Shown piece by piece: positions 23,376 to 51,055 of a DNA stretch of 64,000 nt. Origin of the DNA: Candidatus Polarisedimenticolia bacterium. GTDB lineage: Bacteria; Acidobacteriota; Polarisedimenticolia; JACPZX01; DASXTC01. A model generated the notes under the pieces. The model searched no databases. It was not told the DNA's origin and saw only the letters and a list, made by a program, of their open reading frames with translations. Position 1 is the first letter of the stretch; every line of letters starts with the position of its first letter. The position numbers and the translations under genes are program-made. The stretch is from the NCBI GenBank assembly GCA_050747525.1, contig JBOGOC010000097.1:74209-138208 (forward strand), read 5' to 3'.

Positions 23376-23432
23376 TGGTGCCGGGGGTGGGAATCGAACC
23401 CACATGCCGCTTGCGCGGCAGGGGATTTTAAG
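23376..23432 (-). repeat. direct repeat A: 3' half of a tRNA-Leu(UAA) (anticodon loop to CCA); att-site-like fragment
   Basis: Reverse-complement reads cttaaaa|tcccc|tgccgcgcaagcggcat|gtggg ttcgatt cccac|ccccggc|a|cca. That is anticodon loop, stem 3' strand, class-II variable-arm hairpin, T arm, acceptor 3' strand and CCA. It is near-identical to the 3' half of the intact tRNA at 50967-51055. T-stem differences are compensatory (gtggg/cccac versus gcggg/cccgc). Confidence 0.6.
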
Positions 23433-23556
23433 ACGAAACGGGGAGGGCAATGGAATCAGTAAGTTACTAACTCGTTGCCCTTTCCCGTTTCCGAGGGTTA
23501 CGGGGAGCGACCGTATTTTACGAGGGTTATGGACACCCTGATGGACACCTGTTTCA
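23433..23556. repeat. A/C-type flanking arm: 16-bp-stem hairpin plus short direct repeats
   Basis: About 93% identical to 35436-35574. It contains the hairpin gaaacggggagggcaa-[24 nt]-ttgccctttcccgtttc. It also contains two direct-repeat pairs, cgagggttaYgg (x2) and atggacacc (x2), laid out like integrase arm-type sites. Confidence 0.5.
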
Positions 23557-23822
23557 AGGGTGGGCCATCGGTTTCGGGCAACGAAGCGGGTGGGGGTGTG
23601 AGAGCTGGCCTCACCTGAAAACTGTCGGGTCTCGCGGATCGGCGCGCGGTGCCCGGGATGGTGGTGTCGATACAGACGTCCGGGGAGCTGGCGAACTGGC
23701 AGCCGCACCTGCACGCGAGAATTGTCAACCGCAAGGGCGTGTTCACCCCGCTGACGCTGCCCCCGGCGGCGCGCTGGATGGAAAACTTCACGCCGCCGAC
23801 GCAGCTTGACAGCTGACTTCGC

Positions 23823-24593
23823 TCAGCCGTAGCTGCGTCGGGCAATGGTCCTCAGGGCGCGGTAGCCCGCCCGCGCCCCCCGCGCCAGCAATGAAAGAGA
23901 AGAAGCCAATAGGGATGACATGTTCCCCGCGATGCGTTCAGAAACCGGGATCTGCCTGAGCAGTTCCTGCCTTACAAAAACCTGGTTGGGGAATAGCGAT
24001 CTCCACAGCCCATAGCCAACCGCCCGAAGCCGCACTTTGTAGCGATCCAGTCGTAGGAAGTTTTCGAGAATTATTACGTCAGGCCGATAGCGGGCGACGT
24101 CGAGACCTTCGAGCACATCGAGCTCCCACCCCTCAACATCGACCGACAGGACGCCAATGCGGTCCACACCTGCATCTTGCAGGATGCTATCGAGCCGCCG
24201 CACCCTGACCTTGATGAAGGTCTTGCCGCAGCTGGCTGGGAGGAGCTTGGCGTAGCCCTCTTTGATCCCGAGAGAGGAGAAGCTCTCGTAGGAGACAGCG
24301 CCACCTCTGTAGGGCTCTGAGTGCGAGTTGACCACGACGAATTCGACGCTGTCGCGGTCCTCCGTCCCGCATGCGCATTCGAAAATCTCGTGGCCCAGCT
24401 CCCGGTGCATGGCGGCGAATTCGGGATTGGGCTCGATCGCGATCACCCGCCAGCCCTTCTTGCGAAACAGCGCGCTGACCGACAGGTAATCCGGCCGAGC
24501 CGCACCTACATCGACGAATACGCGTTCCGTATTTCCGTCGTCGAAGAACCTCGAGAACACCTTCCGATCAACGTCACCTTCGGCGCGGTTCAT
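23823..24593 (-). CDS. FkbM-family SAM-dependent methyltransferase
   Basis: Methyltransf_21 hallmarks: VFVDVGAARPDYLSV...VIAIEPNPE...LSVDVEGWELDVLEGL. Confidence 0.7.
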   Translation of the reverse strand: MNRAEGDVDRKVFSRFFDDGNTERVFVDVGAARPDYLSVSALFRKKGWRVIAIEPNPEFAAMHRELGHEIFECACGTEDRDSVEFVVVNSHSEPYRGGAVSYESFSSLGIKEGYAKLLPASCGKTFIKVRVRRLDSILQDAGVDRIGVLSVDVEGWELDVLEGLDVARYRPDVIILENFLRLDRYKVRLRAVGYGLWRSLFPNQVFVRQELLRQIPVSERIAGNMSSLLASSLSLLARGARAGYRALRTIARRSYG

Positions 24594-24953
24594 GAAACCT
24601 CCATTCCATTACATCCTATCACGCCAGCGGAGAGGCAGGCAGACCCCCCACATGTTCGCACCGGCGACCGTCAACTGTTGTGGAGCGAGTCTTCGGCGAG
24701 CTTGGGGTCCTGTGGCTGCGGACTCTGCGTGTGGGGCCACCTGCGTGAGCCTTGATGTGAAACCAGTCTGCATGGACTGATCAGCGCCAACGAATGAACT
24801 TTGATGAATCTATCGTGGTTCGCGTAATACTCCCCTTGGCTTGACGCAGGGCGCGGTGAGTCAGTTGCCGGCTCGTGGTCGCGTGGTACGAGTCGGCGAA
24901 CCAGAGGCCCTTGAAGATGTGTGCCCGCTCGGACCCGGATTCGGAGAGCTCAG

Positions 24954-25229
24954 ATGAGCACCTCGGGGTTGATCCACTTCATGGCAGGGGCCCTCGGCTT
25001 TCTGGCCCTTGCGGTGAGCTGCCTCGTGGTTGCGGTGGCGATGTTGCGGCGAGGGAACCCCTGGATGGCGTGCCTGTCCTTCTTCTCCGGGGCTTCGGTC
25101 TTGGGCGGGTTCTTCGCTCCAGCCATGATTCCCGCCTCGGGACCCGTAGCGGGCATCTGGTTCAGCGTCCTCGTCGGGTGGACCTGGCTGGCTCTCACGT
25201 CCGCGCATCTATACCGGGCGGCGCGCTAG
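24954..25229 (+). CDS. small membrane protein (3 TM), function unknown
   Basis: Start at ATG 24954, preceded by GGAGAG. MSTSGLIHFMAGALGFLALAVSCLVVAVAMLRRGNPWMACLSFFSGASVLGGFFAPAMI... Confidence 0.4.
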   Translation: MSTSGLIHFMAGALGFLALAVSCLVVAVAMLRRGNPWMACLSFFSGASVLGGFFAPAMIPASGPVAGIWFSVLVGWTWLALTSAHLYRAAR

Positions 25230-25382
25230 AAGAGGGCCGCCCCAGGACTTCGCCAGATCGATCGCGATAGTCGTATAGTTGATGCCGGGGAAGGTGCGAG
25301 CGCGAAGGGACGGATGGGAATGTCGATTTCAGTACGGCCCGTTCGACTGAACGGTGAACCGTCCTGAAGGAGCGGCGCCATC

Positions 25383-26900
25383 ATGGATAGTCCGGGTCCT
25401 GGAGCTGCCAAGGCGACCAGCCGTGAGTGGGTTGGACTCGCGGTGCTTGCCCTCCCCTGCATTCTTTACTCCATGGACCTTACGGTGCTGAATCTCGCGG
25501 TGCCGAAGCTGAGCGCGGCCCTGCGCCCCACCAACACCGAGTTGCTGTGGATCGTAGACATCTACGGGTTCGTCCTGGCCGGCGCCCTGATACCCATGGG
25601 GGTGCTCGGTGATCGAATTGGGCGCCGTCGTCTGCTGATGGTCGGCGCCGCCGCATTCGGTTGCGCGTCCGTCCTGGCCGCGTACGCCCCGAGTGTCGCG
25701 GCTCTCGTAGGGGCTCGGGCCCTCCTTGGCATGGCCGCGGCCACGCTCGCTCCTTCGACCTTGTCTCTGCTTCGCAACATGTTCCTTGACCCGAAGGAAC
25801 GGACGTTCGCGATCGGAGTCTGGATCAGCAGCTTCTCGGCGGGGGGCGCCATCGGACCCCTGATCGGCGGGGCGCTGCTCCAGTTCTACTGGTGGGGCTC
25901 CGTGTTCCTGATCAACATTCCCGTCATGCTGCTGCTTCTCTCCGTGGGTCCAAGGCTGCTTCCCGAATTCCGTGATCCTCGGGCAAGCAAGCCGGACGTC
26001 CTGAGCGCAGCTCTGTGCATCGCCACGGTTCTTACGGTCATCTACGGGGTCAAACGCATCGCCGGGCATGGGGCGGATTGGATCGCCGTGGCGACGATCG
26101 TGCTGGGTCTGGCCATCGGCGCCGCCTTCGTGCGCCGGCAGCGACACCTCGCCGACCCCTTCATCGACCTCGGCCTGTTCCGGCGAGCGACGTTCAGCGT
26201 GGCACTTGGGATCAACATTCTGGGCTTCTTCATCGCGTTCGGCACCTTCCTTCTGATCGCACTCTACCTGCAGCTGGTGATCGGACTCTCGCCACTCGCA
26301 GCGGGTCTGTGGACGGCTCCCTCCGGCATGGCCTTCATCGTGGGTGCGATGCTCACGTCACGGATCGTGCGCCACCTGAAACCCGCTCATGTGATCGCGG
26401 CGGGATTCGTGATCGCCGCGCTTGGCCTGTCCCTGCTGACACAAACGGGTACGGCGCACGATCTTTCCGTGGTCGTCGCGGCGTACGCCGCGTTCTCACT
26501 GGGCCTGGCTCCGGTGTTCACGCTCGCATCCGATCTCATCTTGAGCACCGCTCCGCCTGAGCGTGCTGGAGCCGCGGCCGGGATTTCCGAGATGAGCACC
26601 GAGCTGGGAGGAGCCCTCGGCATTGCGCTGCTTGGCAGCGTGGCGACCTTCATCTATCGCCGAACGGTAGCAGGCGCGCTGGACGGCGAGCTGCCACGGA
26701 GTGTGCTTGATGCTGCGGGCGACTCGTTGGGAGGCGCTCTGGAAGCGGCGGGGGCGTTGCCGGGCGAGCTCGGCGCTGCTTTGGTCGCCGTCTCGCGGAG
26801 CGCCTTCGTTGACGCCTTCCAGGCGACCGCCCTGATTTCCGCTGCGATTGCTTTCGTGGCAGCGGCCGGAGCGGTGCGGGAATTTCGCGGAGCGTCCTGA
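25383..26900 (+). CDS. MFS transporter, DHA2 (14-TM drug:H+ antiporter, EmrB/QacA-like)
   Basis: 505 aa with 14 hydrophobic segments. Motif A GDRIGRRRLLMVG. Typical DHA2 N-terminal LAVLALPCILYSMDLTVLNLAVPKL. Confidence 0.75.
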   Translation: MDSPGPGAAKATSREWVGLAVLALPCILYSMDLTVLNLAVPKLSAALRPTNTELLWIVDIYGFVLAGALIPMGVLGDRIGRRRLLMVGAAAFGCASVLAAYAPSVAALVGARALLGMAAATLAPSTLSLLRNMFLDPKERTFAIGVWISSFSAGGAIGPLIGGALLQFYWWGSVFLINIPVMLLLLSVGPRLLPEFRDPRASKPDVLSAALCIATVLTVIYGVKRIAGHGADWIAVATIVLGLAIGAAFVRRQRHLADPFIDLGLFRRATFSVALGINILGFFIAFGTFLLIALYLQLVIGLSPLAAGLWTAPSGMAFIVGAMLTSRIVRHLKPAHVIAAGFVIAALGLSLLTQTGTAHDLSVVVAAYAAFSLGLAPVFTLASDLILSTAPPERAGAAAGISEMSTELGGALGIALLGSVATFIYRRTVAGALDGELPRSVLDAAGDSLGGALEAAGALPGELGAALVAVSRSAFVDAFQATALISAAIAFVAAAGAVREFRGAS

Positions 26901-26958
26901 AGGACTGGATTGACCTGGCGTTGATGCACAACGAGACCATTGCCCCGAGGAAGCAGAG

Positions 26959-27288
26959 ATGATTGCCCGTATCTGGCATGGCTGGACGACCCCTGGCAAC
27001 GCGGACAAGTATGAGTCGCTGCTCAACGAGGAGATCTTCGTCGGTATTCAGAATCGACACATTCCAGGGTTCAAGGGTATTCAACTGCTGCGGCGGGAGC
27101 TCGGCGAGGAAGTCGAGTTCGTCACGATCATGCTCTTCGATTCGCTGGATGCGGTCCGTGAGTTTGCCGGAGAGGATTACGCGGCAGCCGTTATTCCCAG
27201 GGAGGCGAGAGCGGTCCTGGCTCGCTTCGATGCGAGATCGCAGCATTATGAAATCAGGACGGAGAGAAGCAACGAGGCCACGAGGTGA
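26959..27288 (+). CDS. ABM (antibiotic-biosynthesis monooxygenase / Dabb) domain protein
   Basis: 109-aa alpha+beta barrel pattern (IARIWHGWT...FKGIQLLRRELGEEVEFVTIMLFDSLDAVREFAGEDY). Confidence 0.55.
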   Translation: MIARIWHGWTTPGNADKYESLLNEEIFVGIQNRHIPGFKGIQLLRRELGEEVEFVTIMLFDSLDAVREFAGEDYAAAVIPREARAVLARFDARSQHYEIRTERSNEATR

Positions 27289-27438
27289 CGGCAATGGTCC
27301 GATGGATCTGCCAGGATTCCTGCAGAAGACGTTCGATGCCGCGATACTCGAGAGCAACGAGGGCGGTCCCACGCTCCTGCAGATCGGAGACTCGCTCCTC
27401 TGGGTGGAGGCGGGCGAGCTGCCTTCTCATGTCACACC

Positions 27439-27660
27439 ATGGGTGGAAAGGCGACAATGGGACAAACGAGGCAGGAGAGGAACAAAGCACTGGTGCTTGA
27501 AGCCTTCGACGCGCTATTCAACAGGCGTGACTACACAGCGGCAGAGCGGTTCTGGTCGCCCGGCTACATCCAGCACAGTGCCCACATCGCACCTGGCCGC
27601 GAGGGGCTCTTCGACCTCGTCCGCAGCCTGCCGCCGACTAGCATCCGGGCGAGAAACGAT
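27439..27660 (+). pseudogene. SnoaL-like (NTF2-fold) cyclase/ester hydrolase, 3'-truncated
   Basis: RNKALVLEAFDALFNRRDYTAAERFWSPGYIQHSAHIAPGREGLFDLVRSLPPT matches SnoaL_2 N-terminal two-thirds. The frame then decays into Ala/Pro/Arg junk and overlaps the convergent DUF1801 gene. Confidence 0.4.
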
Positions 27661-27667
27661 CGGATCA

Positions 27668-28027
27668 TTACCCGCTGCGCCTGCGCGCCGCCTGCTTCAG
27701 GAGCGCCCCGTAGGCCCGTTCGTCGATGTCCGACGTCGCCCTCACTTTGATGTGCCGCACGAACCTTCCCTGTCCCTCGAGGAGCTTCTTCGGGTCCTTG
27801 AGCATGGAGCCCCGGAAGAAGCCGAGCTGCACGTACGTAGGTGCCGAGTAGACGTAGGCGACGGGTTCCTTGCCCTTCACCCAGCACCCGTTGCCCCACT
27901 TCACCGACTCATCCAGCGCGGGCGCCAGGCGCTTCACGAACCTGCGCAGAGCACGGATGATGGTCCGGTTCTTCGGCCGCTGGCCGGCGAGGTACGCGTC
28001 GAAGCTGTCGTAGCGCTTCATCTTCAT
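27668..28027 (-). CDS. DUF1801 (YdhG-like) domain protein
   Basis: Start taken at MKMKRYDSFDAYLAGQRPKNRTIIRALRRFVKRLAPALDESVKWGNGCWVKGKEPVAYVYSAPTYVQLGFFRG. The track's longer ORF (to 28084) reads through tRNA-like fragment F and is rejected. Confidence 0.55.
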   Translation of the reverse strand: MKMKRYDSFDAYLAGQRPKNRTIIRALRRFVKRLAPALDESVKWGNGCWVKGKEPVAYVYSAPTYVQLGFFRGSMLKDPKKLLEGQGRFVRHIKVRATSDIDERAYGALLKQAARRRSG

Positions 28028-28047
28028 GACGAGGCTCCGCTGCAGGA

Positions 28048-28102
28048 TGGTGCCGGGGCCGGGCGCGAACCCGGAGGGGCCCATGGCCCATAGGATTCTA
28101 AG
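28048..28102 (-). repeat. direct repeat F: degenerate tRNA-Leu 3'-half-like fragment
   Basis: Reverse-complement reads cttagaa|tcct|atgggccatgggcccc (palindromic variable-arm hairpin)|ccggg ttcgcgc cccgg|ccccggc a cca. It is followed at 28103-28110 by acgaaacg, shared with repeats A and C. Confidence 0.45.
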
Positions 28103-28147
28103 ACGAAACGTGAACTCCCGGACGCACAGATCGACGGGCTCCGCAGC

Positions 28148-28753
28148 TCAGGCCAGCAGACCGTCCACGGCCGCGTCGACGACCAAGCCGATCAGCCTGT
28201 CGCGGTCGGCCCAGGGGAAGGCAGGGCGAAGGATGAGGAGTGAGGTGATGCCGTGGACGGCCGCCCAGAGCGCCTGGCTTGCGGCATGGCCCTCCACGCG
28301 GCGGAACCGCTTGTCCTCCAGGCACCGCCGTACGAGGGATCGCAGACGCTCGGAGGCGACGTGGGGCTTGTCGGCGCTCTGCCTCGGGCGGCGCAGGAGG
28401 AACGCGAACTCGTAGACGCTCGGGTTGGCCACGCCGAACTCCACATAGGCGCGCCCAATCTTCCGCACCAGCTCGACCGGATCGCGGCCCCTGTCCGATT
28501 CGATCAGACTCCGCATGCTGTCGGCGAGCCGATCGAAGCTCTCCTCCACCAGACAGTCGAAGAGCGCCTCCTTGTCCTTGAAGTGCCGGTAGAGGTTGCT
28601 GTGCGAGCAGCCGATCCTCTCGGCGAGCTTGCGCATCGAGACCCCTTCGTAGCCGTCCCGGACGAAGGCCTCCCGGGCGGCATCGAGGATCTCCCGCCGG
28701 AGCACCTCCCGGTAGCGCTCGCGGGGGGTGGAAAGTTTCGCTTGACCACTCAT
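28148..28753 (-). CDS. TetR/AcrR-family transcriptional regulator
   Basis: N-terminal HTH (REAFVRDGYEGVSMRKLAERIGCSHSNLYRHFKDKEALF) and a C-terminal ligand-binding helical domain. Confidence 0.8.
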   Translation of the reverse strand: MSGQAKLSTPRERYREVLRREILDAAREAFVRDGYEGVSMRKLAERIGCSHSNLYRHFKDKEALFDCLVEESFDRLADSMRSLIESDRGRDPVELVRKIGRAYVEFGVANPSVYEFAFLLRRPRQSADKPHVASERLRSLVRRCLEDKRFRRVEGHAASQALWAAVHGITSLLILRPAFPWADRDRLIGLVVDAAVDGLLA

Positions 28754-28763
28754 GACCGACGGT

Positions 28764-28785
28764 TATAATACTGACCACCGGTCAG
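28764..28785. promoter_or_regulatory. TATAAT -10 hexamer abutting a 6-3-6 inverted repeat (ctgacc-acc-ggtcag): candidate TetR operator in the divergent promoter
   Basis: ggttataatactgaccaccggtcagaagcg lies in the 59-bp gap between the tetR start (28753, minus) and the Ntn-hydrolase-LRR start (28813, plus). Confidence 0.35.
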
Positions 28786-28812
28786 AAGCGCAAGCCCCAT
28801 GGGAGGTGTTCG

Positions 28813-30915
28813 ATGCTCCACCACCGTGCTCGCGTGATCCCGTCATCCGGCCTCGTCCTCTTACTCTTCGCCACCGGTTGTCTCTCCGCCGCCGGCGATG
28901 ACACAGTCGTCCAGCAGGACCGTGTCATTGCCGGCGGCCCCAACGACTCCCTGGAGGTCCGCCACATCGTCCTGCGAGGGACCAACGAGCAGATCGGACG
29001 CGCGCTGGCCGAGATCGCCAAGGAGCGCTACGGCGTCCGGCCCAATCCCGCCATGGATCCCCTGCAGATGCGCGCTCAGCGCCGTTACCTCGAGCGCAAT
29101 TACCCCATCCTCCTCGACCGCATGCGCGGCGTCGCGGCGGCGTACGGCAGATCGATCGAGGAGGACGGCTGGGACTTCACGACGCTCATGTTCACCGACC
29201 TGCGAGCCGGCTGCTCCGTCGCGCACCTGCCGCCGTCGTCGACTGCGAACGGCAAGAGCGTGGTGAGCCGCGACTACGACTTCACGACCGGCGCCCTCAA
29301 CTTCGGGTTCCTCGAGGAGGGGATGCTGCATCCGACCGCCCGCCCCTACCTGCTCGAGCTTCACCCCGATCGTGGGTACGCCTCCATCGCGATGGTCGCC
29401 TATGACCTCCTGAGCGGCGTGCTCGACGGCATCAACTCCGAAGGTCTTACCGTCACTCTGGCCTTGGACGACACGCTCGTTTCCAGCAACGCCACGGAGC
29501 CGACACGGGGCCCGGCCGTGGGCCTCCACGAGGTGCAGACGCTCCGCCTGCTCCTCGACACGTGCGCCACGGTGGAGGAGGCGAAGCAGACGCTGATGGC
29601 GACCAAGCAGTACTACCAGTACGTCCCCGTCCACTACCTGATCGCGGACCGCAGCGGCAAGGCCTTTGTCTGGGAATACTCCGAGTTTCACAACAAGGAG
29701 TACGTCATGGAGAGCCCGGGGCAGCCTCTGGTCATGACGAACTTCACGCTCCACAAGCAGCTCGAGGACGGCAAGCCCCCTTCGGCGGAAAAGGCGAGAG
29801 GCGTCTGCAAGCGCTACGCGTACCTGAGCGAGAAGCTCGCGGCCGGGAACCTCGACGACAAGGTCATCCGCGGTTTCCACCAGAACGTGGATGCGCAGAT
29901 GTCGCAGGCGGCCGACCCATCCAGCCCTCCGGAGCGCACCTTCTGGCACGCCTTCTACTATCCGGAGGAGCGCCGGGTGCGCCTGAGCTACTACCTCAAG
30001 GACGAGCCGTTCCCCGGAAACGAGCGCTTCGTACGCCCGGTCCGAACCGACTACCTGGATTTCCGGCTTGAGCCGACGGAGAGTGTGCCGGCGAAGGCGG
30101 AGACACGCTCGGGATCGGCAGCGCCCCCCGCCGCATCGCCGGCCCGCCCGGCACCCTTGGACGCGCAGGCGGCCGTCGAGGGGGCCGGCGTCGCGTCAGC
30201 CATCGAGGCCGCAGGTGGCGGCGTCGAGCTTAAGGGAAAGCGGGTCGTCGGCGTGAGCCTCGACAAGGCGACCAGGCTCGAGACCGTCATCCCGCTGCTC
30301 GGCCAGCTCTCCGACCTCGAATCGTTGAGCCTCGGAAACCCCTCCTTGACCGATGCCGATGTTCGCGCTCTCGAGGGGCTGCCCAAGCTCCGTACTCTCG
30401 GCTTCATGGGAGCGCCCATCGGTGACGCGGCGCTCGAGGTCATGAAGACCTTGCCTTCTCTGCGCCAACTGAACATCATCGGCACGAAGGTGACGGACGC
30501 CGGTCTCGTGCACCTGCAGGGCCTCACCGCGCTCGAATACCTCGGCCTCAAGGGCACCGCCATCACCGACGCCGGCCTCGCGCATCTCAAGAACCTCACC
30601 GGCCTCAACACCCTCAACCTCGCCGACACCAGAATCACCGGCGTCGGCCTCGTGCACCTCGCCGGCATGAGGCGCCTGGAGGGCGTGAACCTGTCGAACA
30701 ACAATGTGACCGACGCCGGTCTCGGACACCTGGGTCGAATGCCCGGCCTCGGCGGCCTCAACCTTGCAGGGACGAAGGTGACGGATGCCGGCCTCGTCCA
30801 CCTGAAGCAGCTCCCGAAGCTGACCAAGCTCAACGTGACGGGGACCGCGGTCACGGAGCAAGGCGTGAAGGACGCGAAGAAGTTCCTGCCCTTCTGGTGC
30901 ACGGTGACGCGGTAG
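28813..30915 (+). CDS. lipoprotein: Ntn-hydrolase (peptidase C45 / choloylglycine-hydrolase-like acyltransferase) fused to a C-terminal leucine-rich-repeat domain
   Basis: Lipobox LLLFATGCLS. Putative autoproteolytic G|C site (DLRAGCSVAHLP) and INSEGLTVTL as in the C45/C59 Ntn family. Ala/Pro-rich linker. Then about 12 LRRs of the LxxLxLxGTKVTDAGLVHLKGLTxL type. Confidence 0.6.
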   Translation: MLHHRARVIPSSGLVLLLFATGCLSAAGDDTVVQQDRVIAGGPNDSLEVRHIVLRGTNEQIGRALAEIAKERYGVRPNPAMDPLQMRAQRRYLERNYPILLDRMRGVAAAYGRSIEEDGWDFTTLMFTDLRAGCSVAHLPPSSTANGKSVVSRDYDFTTGALNFGFLEEGMLHPTARPYLLELHPDRGYASIAMVAYDLLSGVLDGINSEGLTVTLALDDTLVSSNATEPTRGPAVGLHEVQTLRLLLDTCATVEEAKQTLMATKQYYQYVPVHYLIADRSGKAFVWEYSEFHNKEYVMESPGQPLVMTNFTLHKQLEDGKPPSAEKARGVCKRYAYLSEKLAAGNLDDKVIRGFHQNVDAQMSQAADPSSPPERTFWHAFYYPEERRVRLSYYLKDEPFPGNERFVRPVRTDYLDFRLEPTESVPAKAETRSGSAAPPAASPARPAPLDAQAAVEGAGVASAIEAAGGGVELKGKRVVGVSLDKATRLETVIPLLGQLSDLESLSLGNPSLTDADVRALEGLPKLRTLGFMGAPIGDAALEVMKTLPSLRQLNIIGTKVTDAGLVHLQGLTALEYLGLKGTAITDAGLAHLKNLTGLNTLNLADTRITGVGLVHLAGMRRLEGVNLSNNNVTDAGLGHLGRMPGLGGLNLAGTKVTDAGLVHLKQLPKLTKLNVTGTAVTEQGVKDAKKFLPFWCTVTR

Positions 30916-31141
30916 GCCAGCAAGGTCGAGGCCGACATCAGCTTCTGAGCTCCGTAGTCCAGTTGAGGACTACGGCGCGGGAGGCGGCCGTTCCATGCAC
31001 TCAGCTTGGGGGGCGCGTGTCAACTCCGAAGCCTGAGGCGTGGACTCCAATTCGTAGGCAGGCCGCCGCCTGGGGCATCCGCATTTACCCGTTGTCTCCT
31101 CGCCCGCCGCGCGGTACGATACGGGACAGCTTGGAGTAGGC

Positions 31142-32581: not shown

Positions 32582-32715
32582 ACGGTTGAACCGGCGCCAC
32601 CAAGCAGCCATCGAAATCATGGGCGCTGATCTGGTGTGGTGAATATCACCGAAATTGAGTGCGACGTTTTTGCCGGAGGGCGTTATAGGCCGCGAGCCAG
32701 CGGAAGAACGCCAAA

Positions 32716-40697: not shown

Positions 40698-40704
40698 GCC
40701 GGCC

Positions 40705-43812: not shown

Positions 43813-43900
43813 AACAGCTCCACTCATGATAACTTCGTTGCCATCGAGTTTGACGTGACACCCCCCGGTGCGAGGCCGCGTTCTCCAGAAGAGGGAGTCC

Positions 43901-44650
43901 ATGAAACGACGTGATGCATTTGGCGTGATCACGATGGGGGCCATGGGCGTCGCGGTGTCGTTAGAAGGAGTTGCCATGGCACAACAACCGACAAGCCCCC
44001 CTCCAGGTTCCGCGTCGCCGGCGTCGACCGGCGTGATCCCCGGGCAGCACGCGGTGAAGCCACTTCCATTCGTGGCCAAGAACCTTCGCGGGCTGTCAGA
44101 GAGACTGATCGTTTCGCACCACGACAACAACTACGCCGGTGCGGTGAAGAACCTCAACAAGGTCGAAGAAGAGCTGTCGAGGGTCACCGCGGACACGCCC
44201 GGATTCATCGTCGGCGGTCTCAAGGAACGGGAACTGACTTTCACCAATTCGATGATCCTGCACGAGCTGTACTTCGGCAATCTAGGCGGCGACGGCCGGG
44301 CCGTGGGATCGATCCTGAAGGATCTGGCCAGCGCGAACGGATCCTTCGCGCGCTGGGAAGAAATGTTCCGGGCCACCGGAATGAGTCTTTCCGGAGGCAG
44401 CGGCTGGACCATACTCGACTTCAATCTCCACACCGGAGACCTGCGCACCTACTGGTCCGGCAATCATAGCCAGGCTCTCGCCTCGGGATGTCCGTTGCTC
44501 GTCATGGATATGTACGAGCACGCCTACCAGATGGATTACGGAGCCGCGGCGGCAAAATACGTCGACGCGTTTTTCGAGAACATCCAATGGGATGAGGTGA
44601 ACCGGAGACTGGAGCGCGCGCAGAAAGCCGCCGCAGTGCTCCGCGCCTGA
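43901..44650 (+). CDS. Fe/Mn-family superoxide dismutase with Tat signal peptide
   Basis: MKRRDAFGVITMGAMGVAVSLEGVAMA is a twin-arginine signal peptide. SOD motifs VSHHDNNYAGAVKNLN and DMYEHAYQMDY. Confidence 0.8.
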   Translation: MKRRDAFGVITMGAMGVAVSLEGVAMAQQPTSPPPGSASPASTGVIPGQHAVKPLPFVAKNLRGLSERLIVSHHDNNYAGAVKNLNKVEEELSRVTADTPGFIVGGLKERELTFTNSMILHELYFGNLGGDGRAVGSILKDLASANGSFARWEEMFRATGMSLSGGSGWTILDFNLHTGDLRTYWSGNHSQALASGCPLLVMDMYEHAYQMDYGAAAAKYVDAFFENIQWDEVNRRLERAQKAAAVLRA

Positions 44651-44677
44651 CAGGCTTCGCGGCGGGGAGGTTAGTCA

Positions 44678-44838
44678 TGAAGTGGGTCACGCGCGAGGGT
44701 GCAAAGACGGACCGCGTGGCCTGTCCGTGGCTCATCACCCGGTTTATCGACGCGGACCATGTGCTCTCCGCTGAGCTGCGGCTCCAGTTCCCGCTGTACG
44801 ACGCCCTCTATGCCTACTGTCGTGACGATTCACCCTGA
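44678..44838 (+). pseudogene. ChrB-C-like (chromate-resistance regulator domain) 5' fragment
   Basis: MKWVTREGAKTDRVACPWLITRFIDAD matches the conserved N-terminus of the ChrB C-domain. The frame then diverges and stops after 53 codons. Confidence 0.3.
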
Positions 44839-44853
44839 GGAACAAACGAGGAC

Positions 44854-45891
44854 ATGAGCCACGCAGGCCTCCGCCCCACCCTCCTGGTGCTGGTCGCGGC
44901 TGCCCTGTTCGGCTCAGCCACTCCACTGGCGAAGGCGCTTCTCGAGTCGCTGGGTCCGTTCCCGCTCGCCGGATTGCTCTATTTCGGCGCCGCTGCGGCC
45001 GTCTGGCCCACCGTTGTGCGAGACGGGCTGCCTGACCGGCGGCACCTCTCGCGCAATGCCCTGCGCCTGACCGGCATCCTGCTGTTCGGCGGAGTGCTGG
45101 CGCCCGTGCTGCTCCTCTGGGGTCTCACGCTCGCCGCCGCGGCCTCCGTCGCCCTGTGGCTCACGCTGGAGACGCTGATCACCGTTCTGCTGGCATGGTT
45201 CTTCTTCAACGAACACATCCATCGGCGCGTGTGGCTCAGCGTCCTGTTGATCCTCGCGGCAAGCGTGCTGCTCGTCTGGCCGGCGGGATTCGACGCCGGG
45301 CAGGCTGCGCTCCTGGTTGCCCTCGCGTGTTGCTGCTGGGGTCTGGACAATAACCTGACCGCGCTCATCGACGGGCTGACACCGGCCCAGACGACCCTGG
45401 TCAAGGGCCTGGCCGCCGGCACGATCAACCTCTTCCTGGGCAGCCTCACAGGCCTGGGGCGACCGCGCGGGCATATCGTTGCTGCAGCCCTCGTTCTCGG
45501 GGCTTTGTGCTACGGCCTGTCGCTGGTCCTTTACATCGGCGGGGCGCAACAGCTCGGCTCGGCGAGGGTTCAGCTCATCTTCTCGACGGCCCCCTTCTGG
45601 GGTGTCATGCTGGCCTGGACTGTGTTCTCCGAGCCCGTTCTCCCGGCACAGATCGCGGCCGGAGCCATGATGCTCGCTGCCCTATGGCTCCTGCACGGCG
45701 AACGTCACGATCACGAGCATGCGCACGAGGCCGTCCGGCACGTTCACTGGCACCGCCACGACGATGGTCACCACGGCCACACCCACGAGGGTGTCACGCC
45801 GTCGAAGGGTCATATCCACGAGCACATCCACGATCCGGCAACCCATTCACACCCGCATCGGCCGGACATTCAGCATCGCCACGAGCACTGA
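44854..45891 (+). CDS. DMT/EamA-family transporter with His-rich C-terminal tail
   Basis: 10 TM helices in two EamA halves. Cytoplasmic tail HGERHDHEHAHEAVRHVHWHRHDDGHHGHTHEG...HIHEHIHDPATHSHPHRPDIQHRHEH is a candidate metal-binding tail. Confidence 0.7.
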   Translation: MSHAGLRPTLLVLVAAALFGSATPLAKALLESLGPFPLAGLLYFGAAAAVWPTVVRDGLPDRRHLSRNALRLTGILLFGGVLAPVLLLWGLTLAAAASVALWLTLETLITVLLAWFFFNEHIHRRVWLSVLLILAASVLLVWPAGFDAGQAALLVALACCCWGLDNNLTALIDGLTPAQTTLVKGLAAGTINLFLGSLTGLGRPRGHIVAAALVLGALCYGLSLVLYIGGAQQLGSARVQLIFSTAPFWGVMLAWTVFSEPVLPAQIAAGAMMLAALWLLHGERHDHEHAHEAVRHVHWHRHDDGHHGHTHEGVTPSKGHIHEHIHDPATHSHPHRPDIQHRHEH

Positions 45892-45927
45892 TGTGAATGC
45901 TATCGGAGGAAGAAAGGAGCGTAACCG

Positions 45928-46587
45928 ATGACCGCCATCCTGCCAGCCCTCGCCCTGCTCCTCGTCGTCCCTGCTGCCGGCGCCCAGGAAAAAACCTCCC
46001 CGCCCAGCAAGACCTGGAACTTCGATTCTGACAAACCTGAGGCGCCGCCTGTCGGGTTCACGTTCGACAGGACCGGTGGAGGCCCAGTCGGTCGGTGGGT
46101 CGTCCTGGCCATGCAGGGCGCGCCCAGCGGCGGACAGGTCTTGGCGCAACTCGACGCGGATGCAACCAGCGCCCGCTTCCCGGTGGCGGTGGCCGACGAA
46201 CCGGCCGTGCGCGACCTTCGTCTCACCGTCAAGTGCAAGCCGGTGTCCGGAAATGTCGACCAGGCCTGCGGTCTCGTGTTTCGATACCGCGACGCGAACA
46301 ACTACTACATCACGCGGTCGAACGCTCTGGAGGGGAACATCAGGCTGTACTATGTGAAGGATGGCCAACGGAAGCAGATCGCGAGCTTTGCCGGCTCCGT
46401 CTCCGCTGACGCCTGGCACGAGCTCGGTATGGAAGCGAAGGGCGAGCACATCGAAGTGTTCTGGGACGGAAAGCGGGTGCTCTCCGCCGACGACAAGACA
46501 TTCCCGGACGCGGGCAAGGTCGGCGTATGGACGAAGGCCGACTCCGTCACCTACTTCGACGACCTGAGTCTCACAACGCCGAACTGA
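45928..46587 (+). CDS. secreted DUF1080 / LamG-like (3-keto-disaccharide-hydrolase-like) domain protein
   Basis: Signal peptide. Conserved W/G pattern (WNFD...GRWVVL...ACGLVFRYRDANNYYI...VGVWTKADSVTYFDDL). Confidence 0.55.
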   Translation: MTAILPALALLLVVPAAGAQEKTSPPSKTWNFDSDKPEAPPVGFTFDRTGGGPVGRWVVLAMQGAPSGGQVLAQLDADATSARFPVAVADEPAVRDLRLTVKCKPVSGNVDQACGLVFRYRDANNYYITRSNALEGNIRLYYVKDGQRKQIASFAGSVSADAWHELGMEAKGEHIEVFWDGKRVLSADDKTFPDAGKVGVWTKADSVTYFDDLSLTTPN

Positions 46588-46723
46588 GGTCGTTCATCGA
46601 TGCCGACAAGGGATGACGACCTTCTCCCCGAACCCTCTCGCGGATGACGGGCGCCGGGGAGAACGCCATCATCCTGACCGTCATCACGGGCGGGCTGCTC
46701 GGCCTCGCCCGGTCCTTCCTCAC

Positions 46724-47488
46724 GTGAGAGCGTCGTCCCGCCCTTCGACAGTATGGATCCTGAGGCCCTGGATCGTCGTGCTGGTCATTCCGGCTGAGTT
46801 GTCGGGCGTCGCGCTGGCGTACCGTCCGTTCGACGGCACGGACGCCGCCGTGGTCGATCCACGCGAGATCGAGATCGAAGTGGGTCCGCTCGGCTTTCTC
46901 GACGACGAGGGCGAGGAGTACCTGGTCGGCCCGGCTGTGGTCGTCAACTGGGGGATCGCGCCGGAATGGGAGGTCGTCGTCGAGGGCACGGGAGTTTTCC
47001 CGCGGGATACCGGCGAGGACGAGCACCGCTTCCGGTTCGAGGATACTGCGGCGCTCCTCAAGGGAGTCCTTCGAAGCGGCGCACTCCAGGATGCCGCTGG
47101 CGCGAGCCTCGCCGTCGAAGGCGGTTTCCTCCTGCCTACGGTTCATGGAGAATCGGGGATGGGCGCCAGCGCGGCACTGATCGTTTCGTGGCGGCTGGGC
47201 CGCGCCATGCTCCACCTGAACGCTGAGGCCGAACGGTCGCGAGCCGGGAAGCCCGGTCTCTTCACCGGGGCCATTGTGGAAGGTCCGGATTCGTGGTGGG
47301 TCCGTCCGGTCGGAGAAGTGTCTCTACAGGGCGAAAGTGGCGACGGCAGTGTCCGGTCGGTCCTCATCGGCCTGATTGCAAGAGCCGGCGGTCGACTGAC
47401 ATTCGACGCCGCCGTCAGGCTCGAGCGCGGTGGGAAGTTCAGGGGCCATGAGCTACGCGCAGGGTTCACGGTAGTTCTGCCTCAATGA
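46724..47488 (+). CDS. hypothetical secreted protein (start uncertain)
   Basis: GTG start gives MRASSRPSTVWILRPWIVVLVIPAELSGVALA (signal peptide). The track's ATG at 46613 adds a low-complexity Arg/His/Pro leader. 4-nt overlap with the downstream ABC substrate-binding gene. Confidence 0.35.
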   Translation: MRASSRPSTVWILRPWIVVLVIPAELSGVALAYRPFDGTDAAVVDPREIEIEVGPLGFLDDEGEEYLVGPAVVVNWGIAPEWEVVVEGTGVFPRDTGEDEHRFRFEDTAALLKGVLRSGALQDAAGASLAVEGGFLLPTVHGESGMGASAALIVSWRLGRAMLHLNAEAERSRAGKPGLFTGAIVEGPDSWWVRPVGEVSLQGESGDGSVRSVLIGLIARAGGRLTFDAAVRLERGGKFRGHELRAGFTVVLPQ

Positions 47489-48528
47489 AGGGAGCGACGA
47501 TGATGGGTTCATGGGCCCGAACGATAACGCTCGCCACCGGGCTCGCCGCGATCGGCTGCATGGCCGGCGGTATCGGATGCCGATCCGACATCGCCGAAGT
47601 AGTGGCCTATACGTCCGTGGACCAGGTGTTCTCCGAGCCGGTGTTCCGCGCATTCGAGGAACGCAGCGGAATCCGGGTGCGGGCGGTTTATGACACGGAA
47701 GAGACCAAGAGCACCGGCGTTCTGAACCGCCTGCTCGCCGAGGCCGCCCACCCCCAGGCCGACGTCTTCTGGTCCGGCGACCCGGTGCGACCATTCATCC
47801 TGATTCGCAAGGGCCTGGTTGAACCCTACCAGTCTCCTGCGGCGACCGGGTTGCCTGTGTCGTTCAGGGCAGACGACGGAAGCTGGAGCGGCTTCGCCGC
47901 CCGCGCTCGCGTACTTCTTGTCAATCGTGACTTGGTCCGCGTGGAGGACATGCCGGGATCGATCCGCGATCTCGCCGATCCCTGCTGGCGCGGCAGGGCC
48001 GCCATCGCCAACCCCTTGTTCGGAACCACGACGATGCACGTCGCCGCGCTCTTCACATTGTGGGGAGAGGAGCCGGCGCGGAATTTCCTCGAAGACCTGA
48101 AGCGCAATGCCGTCCGCATCGCGGGCTCGAACGGAGAGGTCCGGAGGCTGGTGGTCGCCGGAGAGGTGGCCTTCGGCCTGACCGACACGGACGACGCGAA
48201 CGAGGCCCTCAAGGCGGGGGCGCCGGTGGAAGTCGTCTACCCGGACCAAGGAGGACAGGGGACCCTGGTGATGCCGACCGTCGCCGTCCTGCTGCGTGGC
48301 GGGCCGAACCGCGAGGCCGGGAGGAAGCTGATCGACCATCTCCTTGCCGCGGAGACGGAGGAAGTGATGGCCCTCCGTGCCGCGCACATGCCGCTGCGCC
48401 CAGGCGTTCCGGTGCCGTCCGGCGTGAGGCGCGTCGAAGAGATCGATGCCGCCCAGGTTGACTACGCCCGGGTTGCAGAGACGATGGAGTCAATCCAGGA
48501 ATGGCTGCGAAGCTGGTCGGGTTACTGA
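47485..48528 (+). CDS. ABC transporter substrate-binding protein, Fe(3+)/FbpA-AfuA family
   Basis: Lipoprotein-like signal (LAAIGCMAGGIGC). Cluster-1 SBP fold with motifs AYTSVDQ, VFWSGDP and VVYPDQGG. Confidence 0.65.
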   Translation: MKGATMMGSWARTITLATGLAAIGCMAGGIGCRSDIAEVVAYTSVDQVFSEPVFRAFEERSGIRVRAVYDTEETKSTGVLNRLLAEAAHPQADVFWSGDPVRPFILIRKGLVEPYQSPAATGLPVSFRADDGSWSGFAARARVLLVNRDLVRVEDMPGSIRDLADPCWRGRAAIANPLFGTTTMHVAALFTLWGEEPARNFLEDLKRNAVRIAGSNGEVRRLVVAGEVAFGLTDTDDANEALKAGAPVEVVYPDQGGQGTLVMPTVAVLLRGGPNREAGRKLIDHLLAAETEEVMALRAAHMPLRPGVPVPSGVRRVEEIDAAQVDYARVAETMESIQEWLRSWSGY

Positions 48529-50090
48529 AGTCGCCTTTCAGACGATCCCAGCAATCGATTGCCCTGACGGCTGCGTCGGCGGTGGTGTGCCTGGCGGTCC
48601 TCGTCCCATTCGCATGCCTGCTGGCGGAGACGTGGGACGCGGGGGGAGCGGCCGCGCGTGTCCTTGTCTCGGCAGCACCGTGGCGGCTCCTGCTCCGTTC
48701 CGTCGTTTTTTCGGTCGCCGTGACGTCCCTCGCGCTGGTCATTGGTGTGCCGCTCGGAGTGCTGCTGGCCCGGACCGATGTCCCCGCGCGCCGTCTCGCA
48801 TGGGTCATCCATTCGTTCCCGTTGTTCCTGCCACCATTCCTTCCGGCTCTGGGATGGTTCTACCTGTTTGGAACGAACGGGTTCCTCGGCACGGCGGCCT
48901 CGTCGCGGCTGCTCTTCAGCGAGTGCGGGCTGATCGCCGTGCTCGGCCTGGCCTTCTCGCCCGTCGTCACCTCGCTGGTGGGGCTCGGTGTCCTCGGCGT
49001 GGACGCGAGCCTGGAGGACGCGGCGCGCTGCGTGGCGGGACCCGGGAGGGTTGCGGCGCGCATTCTCCTTCCAGCGGCTGCCCCGGCAGTGGCCATGGCG
49101 GGCATCGTTGTTTTTGCCATGACTGTCTCCGAGCTGGCCGTGCCGTCCTTCCTCCGGGTGGAGGTATTTCCGGCTGCGGTTTTTGCCCGTCTCGGCGGTC
49201 TCGATTACGCGCCGGGAGAGGCGTTCGCGCTCGCCCTCCCTCTGCTCCCCGTAGCCTTGGCGCTGCTCTGGCTCGAGCAGCGCTTCGTCGGCCGTCGGTC
49301 CTTCGCCGTCCTGGGGCTTCGTAGCCTGTCGCGAAGCCCCATGCTGCTCGGGCGCCGGTGGCGGCGGCCCGCGATCATCCTCTGCTGGCTCGTCGCGCTG
49401 GTGTCCGCCGCCCCCGTCGCGGCTCTGGCGGTTCGTGCGGGCACCGGAGGTCTCGCCAGCCTGCCGGCCTGGATCGGAGGGGCGCCCTGGAACAGCCTTC
49501 GGGCGGGTATCGCGGCAGCCACCCTCATCACCGGCCTCGGGCTCGTTCTCGGACACGCGCTCGCCCGGCGCCTGCCGGGCTCCGGACCCCTCGACACCGT
49601 GGTCGTCCTGGGATTCGTGGCGCCCGCCCCGGTCATCGGGGTGGGACTCGTCGCAGCCTGGAACCGCCCCGCAACCCAGCTGCTCTACGGCAGCGCCGGT
49701 ATCCTGGTCCTGGGCCTGCTGGCTCGCTACGCCGTCATCGGGCTGCGCACCGTGGCAGCGTCCGTCGCTCAGGCTTCCCCGTCATTCGAGGAGGCCGCGG
49801 CCGTCGGCGGTGCGGGATACTGGAGACGTCTTACGGGGATTGTGCTCCCGCTCCACGCCCGGGGTGTCGGCCTCGCATGGCTCCTGGCGCTCGTCTTCTG
49901 CCTGCGTGACCTGGAGACGTCGATCCTCTTCTACCCGCCGGGCGGCGAGCCGCTTCCTGTGCGCATCTTCACCCTCGAAGCGAATGGGCCCGAACCTGTC
50001 GTGGCCGCGCTGGCCGTCGTGCAGGCGGGGCTCGTCGCCGCGGTGTTCGCGCTCGGATCCGTCCTGATCTTTCGGCAGAGAACGACATGA
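48501..50090 (+). CDS. ABC transporter permease (fused double permease, FbpB-like)
   Basis: 529 aa with 12 TM helices and two EAA-like permease motifs. Stop overlaps the ATPase start. Confidence 0.7.
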   Translation: MAAKLVGLLKSPFRRSQQSIALTAASAVVCLAVLVPFACLLAETWDAGGAAARVLVSAAPWRLLLRSVVFSVAVTSLALVIGVPLGVLLARTDVPARRLAWVIHSFPLFLPPFLPALGWFYLFGTNGFLGTAASSRLLFSECGLIAVLGLAFSPVVTSLVGLGVLGVDASLEDAARCVAGPGRVAARILLPAAAPAVAMAGIVVFAMTVSELAVPSFLRVEVFPAAVFARLGGLDYAPGEAFALALPLLPVALALLWLEQRFVGRRSFAVLGLRSLSRSPMLLGRRWRRPAIILCWLVALVSAAPVAALAVRAGTGGLASLPAWIGGAPWNSLRAGIAAATLITGLGLVLGHALARRLPGSGPLDTVVVLGFVAPAPVIGVGLVAAWNRPATQLLYGSAGILVLGLLARYAVIGLRTVAASVAQASPSFEEAAAVGGAGYWRRLTGIVLPLHARGVGLAWLLALVFCLRDLETSILFYPPGGEPLPVRIFTLEANGPEPVVAALAVVQAGLVAAVFALGSVLIFRQRTT

Positions 50091-50854
50091 ACGAGTCGAT
50101 AGCCTTCGACGGTGTGTCGCTTCGCCTTGCAGGCCGTACGGTGCTGGACGGATTCTCGCTGACCGTCCATCGGGGCGACACCCTCGCCTTGCTCGGGCGA
50201 TCGGGCTGCGGCAAGACGAGCGTGCTGCGCCTCGCGCTGGGTCTTATCGCCCCTGATCGAGGATGTGTGCGGCTGCGCGGCGAGGTCGTCAGCCGCGAAG
50301 GGCGCGTCCTCCGGCTCCCGGAAGAGCGTCGACTGGCGGTGGTCTTCCAGGATCTGGCCCTGTGGCCGCACCTCACGGTCCGGGGCAACCTGGAGTTCGG
50401 ACTGGCCGCCGCCCGCGTGCCGCCCGCGGAGAGGATGGCCCGGATCGCCGAGATCGTGAGACTGGTGGGGATCAAGGACAAGGAAGAATCCTACCCTGGG
50501 GACCTTTCCGGTGGAGAGAGGCAGCGGGTGGCGATCGCGCGCGCCCTCGTGCTCGACCCGGAGGCAGTGCTCCTGGACGAGCCACTGAGCAACCTCGACG
50601 TGAGCCTCAAGCGGGAGCTCCTGCGACTGTTCCGGGATCTGATCGAGCGGCGCGGCGCGACCGCCATCTACGTCACCCACGATCCGCATGAGGCGATCTT
50701 TCTCGCAAACCGCATCGCGGTCATGGAGCAGGGTCAGATCATTCAGGAAGGAACCGCTGCGGAACTCGCGTCGGCACCAGCAAGCGAGTTTGTCAGGGAA
50801 CTGGTTGTCAACCTGAACGGCCGGCCGTTCGCAACTGGGAGGGACGAAGCATGA
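50087..50854 (+). CDS. ABC transporter ATP-binding protein
   Basis: Walker A GRSGCGKT; signature LSGGERQRVAIARAL; Walker B VLLDEP; H-loop VTHD. Confidence 0.85.
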   Translation: MNESIAFDGVSLRLAGRTVLDGFSLTVHRGDTLALLGRSGCGKTSVLRLALGLIAPDRGCVRLRGEVVSREGRVLRLPEERRLAVVFQDLALWPHLTVRGNLEFGLAAARVPPAERMARIAEIVRLVGIKDKEESYPGDLSGGERQRVAIARALVLDPEAVLLDEPLSNLDVSLKRELLRLFRDLIERRGATAIYVTHDPHEAIFLANRIAVMEQGQIIQEGTAAELASAPASEFVRELVVNLNGRPFATGRDEA

Positions 50855-50966
50855 GGCCAGGTCGCCGCCGATCACAGTTCTCCTGTCGATTCATCCACTT
50901 CCATCTCGACAGGAACACAAGCTCGCGCACGACGGGATGGTCCCGCGGCTCCCGCGGTGGCCCTGA

Positions 50967-51055
50967 TGGTGCCGGGGGCGGGGATCGAACCCGCATGCCG
51001 CTTGCGCGGCAGGGGATTTTAAGTCCCCTGCGTCTGCCAGTTCCGCCACCCCGGC
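50967..51055 (-). tRNA. tRNA-Leu (anticodon UAA), class II, 89 nt including CCA
   Basis: Minus strand reads gccgggg tg gcg gaactggcaga cgc a gggga cttaaaa tcccc tgccgcgcaagcggcat gcggg ttcgatc cccgc ccccggc a cca. The acceptor forms 7 bp. D-loop GGAACTGGCAGA is typical of tRNA-Leu. Anticodon stem forms 5 bp, long variable arm with a GNRA-looped hairpin, and T arm. Confidence 0.8.

Follow-up and report, generated by a model that had tools for sequence, protein, structure and literature searches.

The commonest class of integration into tRNA genes (tDNAs) is a crossover in the anticodon loop that leaves a displaced 3' fragment; it accounts for 2083 of the 3919 islands catalogued by Islander, in which arrays of three or more number only 4 in 2168 genomes (PMC4383910). 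Successive integrations at one tRNA push the older elements outward (PMC4383910; 10.1101/2020.12.28.424599; for the accretion of cis-mobilizable elements (CIMEs), PMC5704250). CIMEs keep attL and attR without integration genes; they pile up at the 3' end of the gene that they target, and the integrase of a related element can mobilise them (PMC5704250). The tycheposons of Prochlorococcus form variable tRNA-adjacent islands, with partial tRNAs left by successive integrations and cargo exchanged between genomes (10.1101/2020.12.28.424599), and the dif modules of Acinetobacter plasmids and the integrative mobile elements exploiting Xer (IMEX) are small modules that carry no recombinase; each has recombination sites at its borders, and an enzyme with its gene elsewhere shuffles them among replicons (PMC13141974, PMC6449649). 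Here, we describe a stretch of 64,000 nucleotides (hereafter the window) of a contig from a Candidatus Polarisedimenticolia bacterium (Acidobacteriota), in which an intact tRNA-Leu(UAA) gene is accompanied by five further copies of its 3' half. We put at roughly 60% the probability that five or more gene cassettes were inserted here one after another to form an array, by conservative site-specific recombination in the anticodon loop of the tRNA-Leu(UAA) gene and through a recombinase supplied in trans.

The tRNA-Leu(UAA) gene is the single tRNA gene of the whole window, as called by ARAGORN in agreement with Rfam. Its anticodon stem-loop, GGGGA-CTTAAAA-TCCCC, is presumably the target site. The 3' half, from the CTTAAAA anticodon loop to CCA, is found in five further copies, all on the minus strand and co-oriented with the tRNA (each named below by f and its first position):

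50967-51055, minus strand: intact tRNA-Leu(UAA), anchor of the array (ARAGORN; Rfam RF00005, 55.3 bits)
37193-37249, minus strand: displaced 3' half f37193 (pattern, profile; its chimera is a valid tRNA-Leu(UAA))
35382-35435, minus strand: displaced 3' half f35382 (pattern, profile, chimera test)
32716-32771, minus strand: displaced 3' half f32716 (pattern, profile, chimera test)
28048-28102, minus strand: displaced 3' half f28048, degenerate (alignment, profile; chimera with anticodon UAG)
23376-23432, minus strand: displaced 3' half f23376, the most distal (94.8% identical to 50966-51023)

A degenerate 25-nt pattern covering the T arm and the acceptor end gave 5 matches where 0.03 were expected from shuffles, and the fragment profile recovered six copies at E = 1e-13 to 1e-17 and had no other match in the window. 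In the alignment every copy starts at one and the same anticodon-loop position, and successive copies, counted from the intact tRNA, lie 13774, 1811, 2666, 4668 and 4672 nt apart. An earlier note on this DNA, made from the letters alone, had proposed one intact tRNA-Leu(UAA) with five same-strand repeats of its 3' half, a common start in the anticodon loop and a partition into five segments, and on all three points it was right.

When the resident 5' half was joined to each fragment, ARAGORN called a tRNA-Leu in five cases out of five; four of these chimeras read UAA and that of f28048 reads UAG. The T stems vary by paired changes (GCGGG/CCCGC, CTGGG/CCCAG, GTGGG/CCCAC and CCGGG/CCCGG) and the variable arms vary too. 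The distal fragment f23376 differs from the present tRNA by one compensated T-stem pair and one T-loop base and by nothing else, f35382 and f32716 share an identical stretch of 32 nt, and f28048 has the loop CTTAGAA and a T loop one base short. The tRNA 5' half occurs once in the window, even with 3 mismatches allowed, and Rfam gave no match to a group I intron. Intron-split or permuted tRNA genes, which the earlier note had named as what would overturn its reading, were therefore ruled out: the 5' half is present only once, and ARAGORN finds one gene. These data agree with its proposals that the compensatory T-stem changes point to an origin in functional tRNA-Leu genes and that the copies arose by site-specific recombination at the anticodon loop and not by slippage.

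Several observations concern variant fragments. The loop CTTAGAA (anticodon UAG instead of UAA) is common to f28048 and to positions 4146-4202 of a soil contig, L006 (L-numbers denote loci or contigs retrieved for comparison, most of the related loci being ≤8 kb), although the organisms differ; other displaced units have the loops CCTAAAA, CTTGAAA and CTTGAGA. These variants may be mutations that followed displacement, may come from tRNA-Leu(UAG) donors or may protect the site from further recombination. Beyond the array, a seventh 3' fragment of tRNA-Leu(UAA), degenerate as well, lies ~7.6 kb to the left of window position 1 (L025 1296-1354, plus strand; record position ~99.58 kb). It has the loop CTTAAGA and a defective T loop, its orientation is opposite to that of the array, and its 3' end faces that of f23376 at a distance of ~31 kb. 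There is no intact tRNA or integrase near it in a further 10 kb, and it could be an old inversion or a second, decayed site.

The earlier note had taken the repeat for a bare 57-nt half-tRNA. The repeat is instead a composite site of ~175 nt, made of an arm, of type R_A or R_B, and the half-tRNA, and three of the fragments (f37193, f35382 and f23376) are in addition followed by a common trailer, L1:

37250-37402, minus strand: R_B-type arm directly 5' of f37193 (72% identical to 32772-32925)
32772-32925, minus strand: R_B-type arm 5' of f32716 (alignment, profile)
35436-35555, minus strand: R_A-type arm 5' of f35382 (covariance model match 35424-35555, 153 bits)
23433-23552, minus strand: R_A-type arm 5' of f23376 (covariance model match 23421-23552, 161 bits)
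37119-37192, minus strand: L1-type trailer 3' of f37193 (profile match at E = 1.9e-18; alignment)
35310-35381, minus strand: L1-type trailer 3' of f35382, with one GTGTCCATC motif (profile, repeat search)
23300-23375, minus strand: L1-type trailer 3' of f23376, with the GTGTCCATC motif (profile, repeat search)

The R_A arm is ~120 nt long and the R_B arm ~150 nt. R_A has a sharp 5' boundary. Within it lie two copies each of the repeats GTGTCCAT and TAACCCTCG, together with an imperfect hairpin of 57 nt that adjoins the heptamer CTTAAAA, its foot lying 2-3 nt before it. In a lambda-type attP, too, direct repeats flank the core. The two R_A arms of the window are ~93% identical over 137 nt, closer to each other than are their adjoining tRNA fragments, and the arm at 23433-23552 together with f23376 is 96.6% identical to a unit of another locus, L018. 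R_B arms are not detected by the R_A covariance model, and the two arm types can therefore not be called homologous. Upstream of f28048, ~30 nt are weakly R_B-like (28047-28132 versus 32715-32799, 76%). No Rfam family matched the arm at the gathering threshold or at E ≤ 1. Regarding the trailers, that of the intact tRNA (50920-50945, minus strand) holds ACCATCCCGTCGTGCGCGAG, which is similar to the L1 motif ACCATCCCACCGTCGCGCAAG (23337-23363, plus strand) in the opposite orientation; this likeness could be due to chance or to a shared binding motif. Part of L1 is in addition a mirror of the variable arm in the fragment that it follows.

The sense strand of the R_A arm at 23433-23552 folds as DNA at -34.5 kcal/mol (z = -4.3). 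The apex of the hairpin differs among copies with complementarity kept (GTCAAC/GTTGAC, ATCAAGGA/TCCTTGAT and CGAATCAA/TTGATTCG), and the count over its pairs gave 17 double-change cells, compared to 6.0±2.1 in shuffles, none of the 500 of which reached the observed value; the covariation also exceeds that of every slid control. These comparisons lend modest support to the idea that the hairpin, or palindrome, is under selection. A strand asymmetry, considered on account of G·T wobbles on the sense strand, was not supported by folding energies: with DNA parameters the sense strand is the more stable in 3 of 17 units, and there is no strand preference. Because the energies favour neither strand, single-stranded, RNA and cruciform roles of the hairpin cannot be told apart.

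The same unit recurs in other genomes. The pattern of R_A repeats was found in 14 loci from about ten metagenome-assembled genomes (MAGs), mostly labelled Acidobacteriota or Polarisedimenticolia, with one locus each in bins of Gemmatimonadota, Nitrospiraceae and Krumholzibacteriia; with the window and the soil contig, profiles give ~30 units in total. A probe made of the L1 trailer had no match in the genome and viral contig collections and two in metagenomes, the soil contigs L006 and L007, which are nearly identical to each other. In both, an intact tRNA-Leu(UAA), whose 5' half is that of the window, is followed by two R_A-plus-fragment units at spacings of 2.4 and 0.9 kb, and the 0.7-kb body between these units encodes only a DUF4160/DUF2442 pair. 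In L010+L015 an intact tRNA-Leu(UAA) is followed by five units, so that three arrays (window, L006 and L010) are anchored on this gene; three units are present in each of L008 and L017, and two in each of L014 and L020+L011. The spacing of units is 0.9-4.7 kb, with a largest value of 13.8 kb, and every unit has the orientation of the tRNA of its array. Across MAGs the R_A arm is 75-97% identical, and across copies it is far more constant than the adjoining tRNA half; fragments in L008, L010 and L013 are truncated or mutated. The unit is absent from phage, plasmid and IMG/VR collections, where only its tRNA-Leu part matches phage and plasmid sequences. Insertion sequences (ISs) were also seen at units: in L021 an insertion of ~1.5 kb, with a gene for a transposase of the IS110 family, interrupts the R_A arm (325-403 and ~1870-1971), and the arm hairpin region may be a preferred target of IS110, while IS256 in L018 and IS21 in L019 adjoin units.

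Comparison with relatives, which the earlier note had proposed as a way to see the units separately, revealed cassettes that are shared between genomes but have different neighbours. The window segment 37455-43083, with a small open reading frame (ORF) and the RND efflux genes, is 90.1% identical at the nucleotide level to L018 2371-8000; beyond the unit next to this RND part, the window continues with a cassette encoding an extracytoplasmic function (ECF) sigma factor, and L018 with a PIN-domain ORF and IS256. L008 4687-6561 and L010+L015 6293-8149 are 82% identical and represent one cassette with both of its flanking units, the neighbours differing on both sides, and the PIN cassette is common to L008 and L018. 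In the shared cassettes the 3' half and the trailer go with the downstream body and the arm with the upstream body. A crossover at CTTAAAA makes a cassette consist of 3' half, body and arm, and this matches the observed partition of fragments and arms. L020+L011 has the gene order of the ABC transporter/EamA block of the window, at 35-58% amino-acid identity, and its fragments are identical to f37193 except for one T-loop base. In L020+L011 a unit of fragment and arm closes this block, in the place of the intact tRNA of the window, as would be expected if further cassettes had been inserted later.

These features can be arranged in a simple scheme. A circular cassette would carry a composite attachment site, formed by an arm of ~120-150 nt (R_A or R_B), the heptamer and a full tRNA-Leu 3' half. 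Upon insertion the 3' half of the cassette would replace the resident one, so that the tRNA stays functional, and the previous 3' half would be left downstream with the arm of the new cassette now before it. Repetition would yield the order tRNA, cassette 1, arm plus fragment, cassette 2 and so on, the oldest cassette being the farthest out. The circular intermediates, the order of arrival and any role of the hairpin are inferred, and the mobility of the cassettes is deduced from comparisons only. The recombinase would act in trans, because it is encoded neither in the cassettes nor nearby, and it is most likely of the tyrosine type, as judged from the site: in the target, a perfect inverted repeat of 5 bp encloses a spacer of 7 nt, and the direct repeats of the arm look like arm-type binding sites.

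The search for this enzyme covered ~95 kb of the source contig, the 180-kb CDBFBP010000078.1 of MAG GCA_974107545.1. Pfam analysis of practically every called gene between 1 and 55 kb of the window revealed no tyrosine or serine recombinase, excisionase, relaxase or Y1 transposase, as the earlier note had stated for recombinases, and the precomputed Pfam annotations of the contig extensions (~19 kb on the left, ~9 kb on the right) list none of these either. The same families were absent from 78 ORFs in the related loci (for 15 of these, each of ≥150 aa, the family list is complete, and for 14 more it is complete down to E ≈ 1e-3), and a crude catalytic-motif screen in all six frames was negative. 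The only transposases seen in the related loci are those of IS256 (L018), IS21 (L019) and IS110 (L021). A primase/helicase replication module was found neither in the window nor in the related-locus scans, and no autonomous relative was found in viral, plasmid and phage collections or in the retrieved loci.

The main rival explanation is that tandem classical elements (prophages, integrative and conjugative elements (ICEs) or integrative and mobilizable elements (IMEs)), each with its own integrase, have decayed to att scars. The principle is well documented (Islander, PMC4383910; tycheposon islands; CIMEs, PMC5704250), and there are signs of decay: in the window a ChrB_C remnant, weak SnoaL and TPR ORFs and the degenerate f28048, and in the related loci the truncated or mutated fragments and the three IS insertions. 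However, none of the ~30 units stands beside an integrase or a recognisable remnant of one, the spacing goes down to 0.9-1.7 kb, where intact toxin-antitoxin pairs such as DUF4160/DUF2442 are the sole cargo, the R_A arm keeps its 75-97% identity across MAGs and its sharp 5' boundary, and the T stems of most tRNA halves have kept perfect pairing. As disused scars are not expected to stay so intact, we hold this explanation to be unlikely. The earlier note had left the choice between ancient, decayed elements and mobilisation in trans, and it is movement in trans that fits better with the identity of the units and with the lack of integrases beside them. A single-strand, hairpin-guided enzyme (a HUH/Y1 enzyme, transposase or relaxase, of IS200/IS605 or oriT type, or an integron-like system acting on a folded strand) could also move the same array in trans, by recognising the 57-nt hairpin and cutting a few bases 3' of it in the anticodon loop. 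A hairpin that ends 2-3 nt before CTTAAAA does resemble nic sites and the right ends of IS608, its structure is kept while the sequence changes, and the unit is without a symmetric core site; yet no gene for a Y1, Rep or relaxase protein was seen in any locus, both strands fold about equally well with no sign of an active one (sense more stable in 3 of 17), there is no attC R-box consensus, and the direct repeats favour a lambda-like tyrosine integrase. We regard such an enzyme as improbable.

It is still less probable that the units are a structured non-coding RNA or a self-multiplying repeat of the type of repetitive extragenic palindromes (REPs) or miniature inverted-repeat transposable elements (MITEs), with an incidental likeness to tRNA. 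The good fold (z = -4.3), some covariation and the sharp ends are compatible with this idea, but it leaves unexplained why all units within an array have the orientation of the tRNA, why three arrays begin at an intact tRNA-Leu(UAA) and why the similarity to tRNA runs exactly from the anticodon loop to CCA; moreover, the arm is constant while the changes in the tRNA part are compensated, as is typical of real tRNA genes, fragment and arm lie at opposite sides of the shared cassettes, and Rfam gave no match. The least probable explanation, to which we give very little weight, is an artefact of assembly or binning in which repeats stitched together contigs of several strains. The source is indeed a MAG contig, and Logan unitigs break exactly at the repeats (L002), but stretches of 12 kb in independent Logan unitigs are 100% identical to the contig, the identical stretches between repeats are of ~32 nt or less, well under read length, and the same architecture is found in several independent assemblies from other samples. 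L002 itself (Logan SRR27067778, 2694 nt) corresponds to window positions 32716-35409 and has the same ~30-nt T-arm sequence at both ends, which gives it a circular look; it was rejected as a circle, the unitig being broken at a 31-mer common to f35382 and f32716.

Several points weigh against recombination in trans at the tRNA. Neither the ~95 kb of the contig nor the related loci yielded the recombinase, and since most of the related loci are so short an integrase just outside them would be missed. No circular or empty-site junction was observed, and where the array stops on the left is undefined: the L1 sequence behind f23376 either is the original trailer of the tRNA or begins a sixth cassette with no detectable end, L1-like sequence being also present 3' of the intact tRNA in L006 and L010. 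The unit has no recognisable left core half-site: CTTAAAA is preceded by the hairpin foot and not by a mirror of TCCCC. The arm of the RND cassette is R_B in the window and R_A in L018; body and arm are therefore not always passed on together, and extra events, such as a replacement of the arm or a fusion of cassettes, are needed. R_B arms were found nowhere else, being absent from all fetched loci and giving no match as a probe in viral contigs. Homologues of the DUF2252 gene, which lies in a cassette, and of the PQQ gene, which flanks the array, are 80-88% identical at the nucleotide level in unrelated contexts without units. Finally, the data for comparison are all MAG or metagenome contigs, in which repeats can mis-order segments. 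As to the homologues of DUF2252 (33205-34632) and of the PQQ-propeller gene (21444-23177), they are found in L003-L005 and L022-L024, and similarity stops within a few bases of the coding region, a high conservation for single genes without synteny. Using them to obtain synteny gave neither an empty site nor the left boundary.

The window array can be divided into five cassettes, for which no strand is assigned:

37250-51023: cassette 1, tRNA 3' half, body and R_B arm (Pfam; mosaic)
35436-37249: cassette 2, ECF sigma factor and a 199-aa ORF (Pfam; gene calls in L001)
32772-35435: cassette 3, with DUF2252 (33205-34632, minus strand) as sole gene (Pfam, E = 4e-152)
28103-32771: cassette 4, TetR regulator, Ntn-hydrolase/LRR protein and FG-GAP protein (Pfam)
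23433-28102: cassette 5, DUF1801, weak SnoaL and ABM ORFs, MFS transporter, DUF998 fragment and FkbM methyltransferase (Pfam)

By Pfam, cassette 1 encodes an ABC importer (substrate-binding protein, permease and ATPase), a lectin-like protein and EamA, and also the ChrB_C remnant, an Fe/Mn superoxide dismutase (SOD), the RND efflux proteins OEP, HlyD and AcrB and the small ORF. This first segment, treated as one element in the earlier note, is a mosaic and not obviously a single element. The ChrB_C remnant (44677-44838, plus strand) is truly truncated, matching the first 25 of 132 profile positions. It sits between SOD and EamA, at the switch from the L018-like part to the diverged ABC/EamA part, and may mark an internal point of fusion. 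In cassette 2 the true start of the ECF sigma factor is near 35629. The cargo listed in the earlier note was borne out by Pfam, except that the 199-aa ORF, which it took for the anti-sigma partner, has no Pfam match. Its claim that genes at the junctions are truncated holds for ChrB_C as a truncation, but this gene lies inside segment 1; DUF1801 (27668-28084) looks intact, with a probable ATG ~25 nt downstream of the fragment, and the TPR and SnoaL ORFs have Pfam matches below threshold only. The steps in GC and GC3 at the boundaries, which it had envisaged, are small and inconsistent; the GC content of cassette 5 is lower (0.628). The genes beside the tRNA differ between arrays: BlaI/BlaR-like in the window, of no assigned function in L006, and encoding a CAAX protease and a cytidylyltransferase in L010. 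One further similarity, between 2336-2410 and 28146-28220 (84% over 75 nt), was considered as a hidden unit and rejected, as 28146-28220 is the 3' end of the TetR gene. The copy at 2336-2410 adjoins an MFS gene (1068-2330), the ORFs there have no Pfam match or were unscanned, and the similarity, which looks like one at the coding level, may reflect the remnant of a paralogous TetR gene.

If movement in trans is confirmed, such arrays would be a second kind of ordered, single-site gene-capture array besides integrons, in an abundant and poorly cultured phylum of soil and sediment, and would explain part of the flexible genome of these organisms, with efflux pumps, transporters, regulators and toxin-antitoxin modules as cargo. 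The conserved arm of ~120 nt is an easy sequence tag for these arrays and, through co-occurrence, for the missing recombinase. Island finders that require an integrase, such as Islander, miss these arrays entirely.

How does this locus compare with the systems described so far? With the anticodon-loop class of Islander islands it shares the regenerated tRNA, the co-oriented 3' fragments that start in the anticodon loop, the 3' half supplied by the element and the outward push by later arrivals. As in the definition used there, an intact tDNA and its cognate co-oriented fragments lie on the same replicon, the fragments start at a recognised sublocation (CTTAAAA) and the gene is restored, all chimeras being tRNA-Leu. 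However, Islander islands carry their own tyrosine integrase, usually next to the tRNA, and typically span 5-100 kb, whereas here no integrase was found within any island by Pfam analysis of the window, extensions and related loci or by the motif screen, and at least five units are present, with a spacing down to ~0.9 kb in related loci. Like CIMEs, the cassettes have att sites on both sides, and no genes for recombination or transfer were found in them; however, the CIMEs of Streptococcus ICEs and IMEs are thought to be decayed ICEs or IMEs and usually number one or two per site, whereas here many very small cassettes occur family-wide with one highly conserved structured arm, and no parental ICE or IME was identified. 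Tycheposons also leave partial tRNAs, but they are defined by their own tyrosine recombinase and a replication module, with fragmented integrases in their islands, none of which was found here, and host phylum, target tRNA and arm sequence all differ.

The likeness to integrons and to clusters of attC sites lacking integrons (CALINs) lies in the single platform, the ordered small cassettes without recombinase, the end site in the form of an imperfect palindrome with conserved structure (here of 57 nt, with some covariation), the frequent toxin-antitoxin cassettes and the shuffling between genomes. In contrast to integrons, the array is headed by no intI, attI or cassette promoter (Pc); its cassette site consists of a tRNA half with a sequence-conserved arm and has no R/L boxes of the RYYYAAC/GTTRRRY type and no strand asymmetry of the hairpin; and genes lie in both orientations, some in multi-gene cassettes with their own regulators. 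The system thus looks integron-like, with the tRNA as platform, yet fails the tests that define integrons. We can only tentatively suggest that Acidobacteriota possess an undescribed integron-like means of gene acquisition, in which tRNA-Leu(UAA) would be the platform, the hairpin arm with the 3' half would act as attC, and a dedicated recombinase encoded elsewhere would insert, excise and shuffle cassettes, the tRNA always being regenerated. Dif modules and IMEX use 28-bp XerC/D sites, on plasmids or at dif, whereas here the site is a chromosomal tRNA anticodon loop with a long arm; nothing dif-like was seen by inspection of the conserved site, no search having been aimed at dif-like sites. 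What is unusual here is the number of units and their short spacing, the absence of an integrase or remnant, the conserved structured arm on a functional half-tRNA and the recurrence in independent assemblies. The general principle is known; the family and its arm appear to be undescribed.

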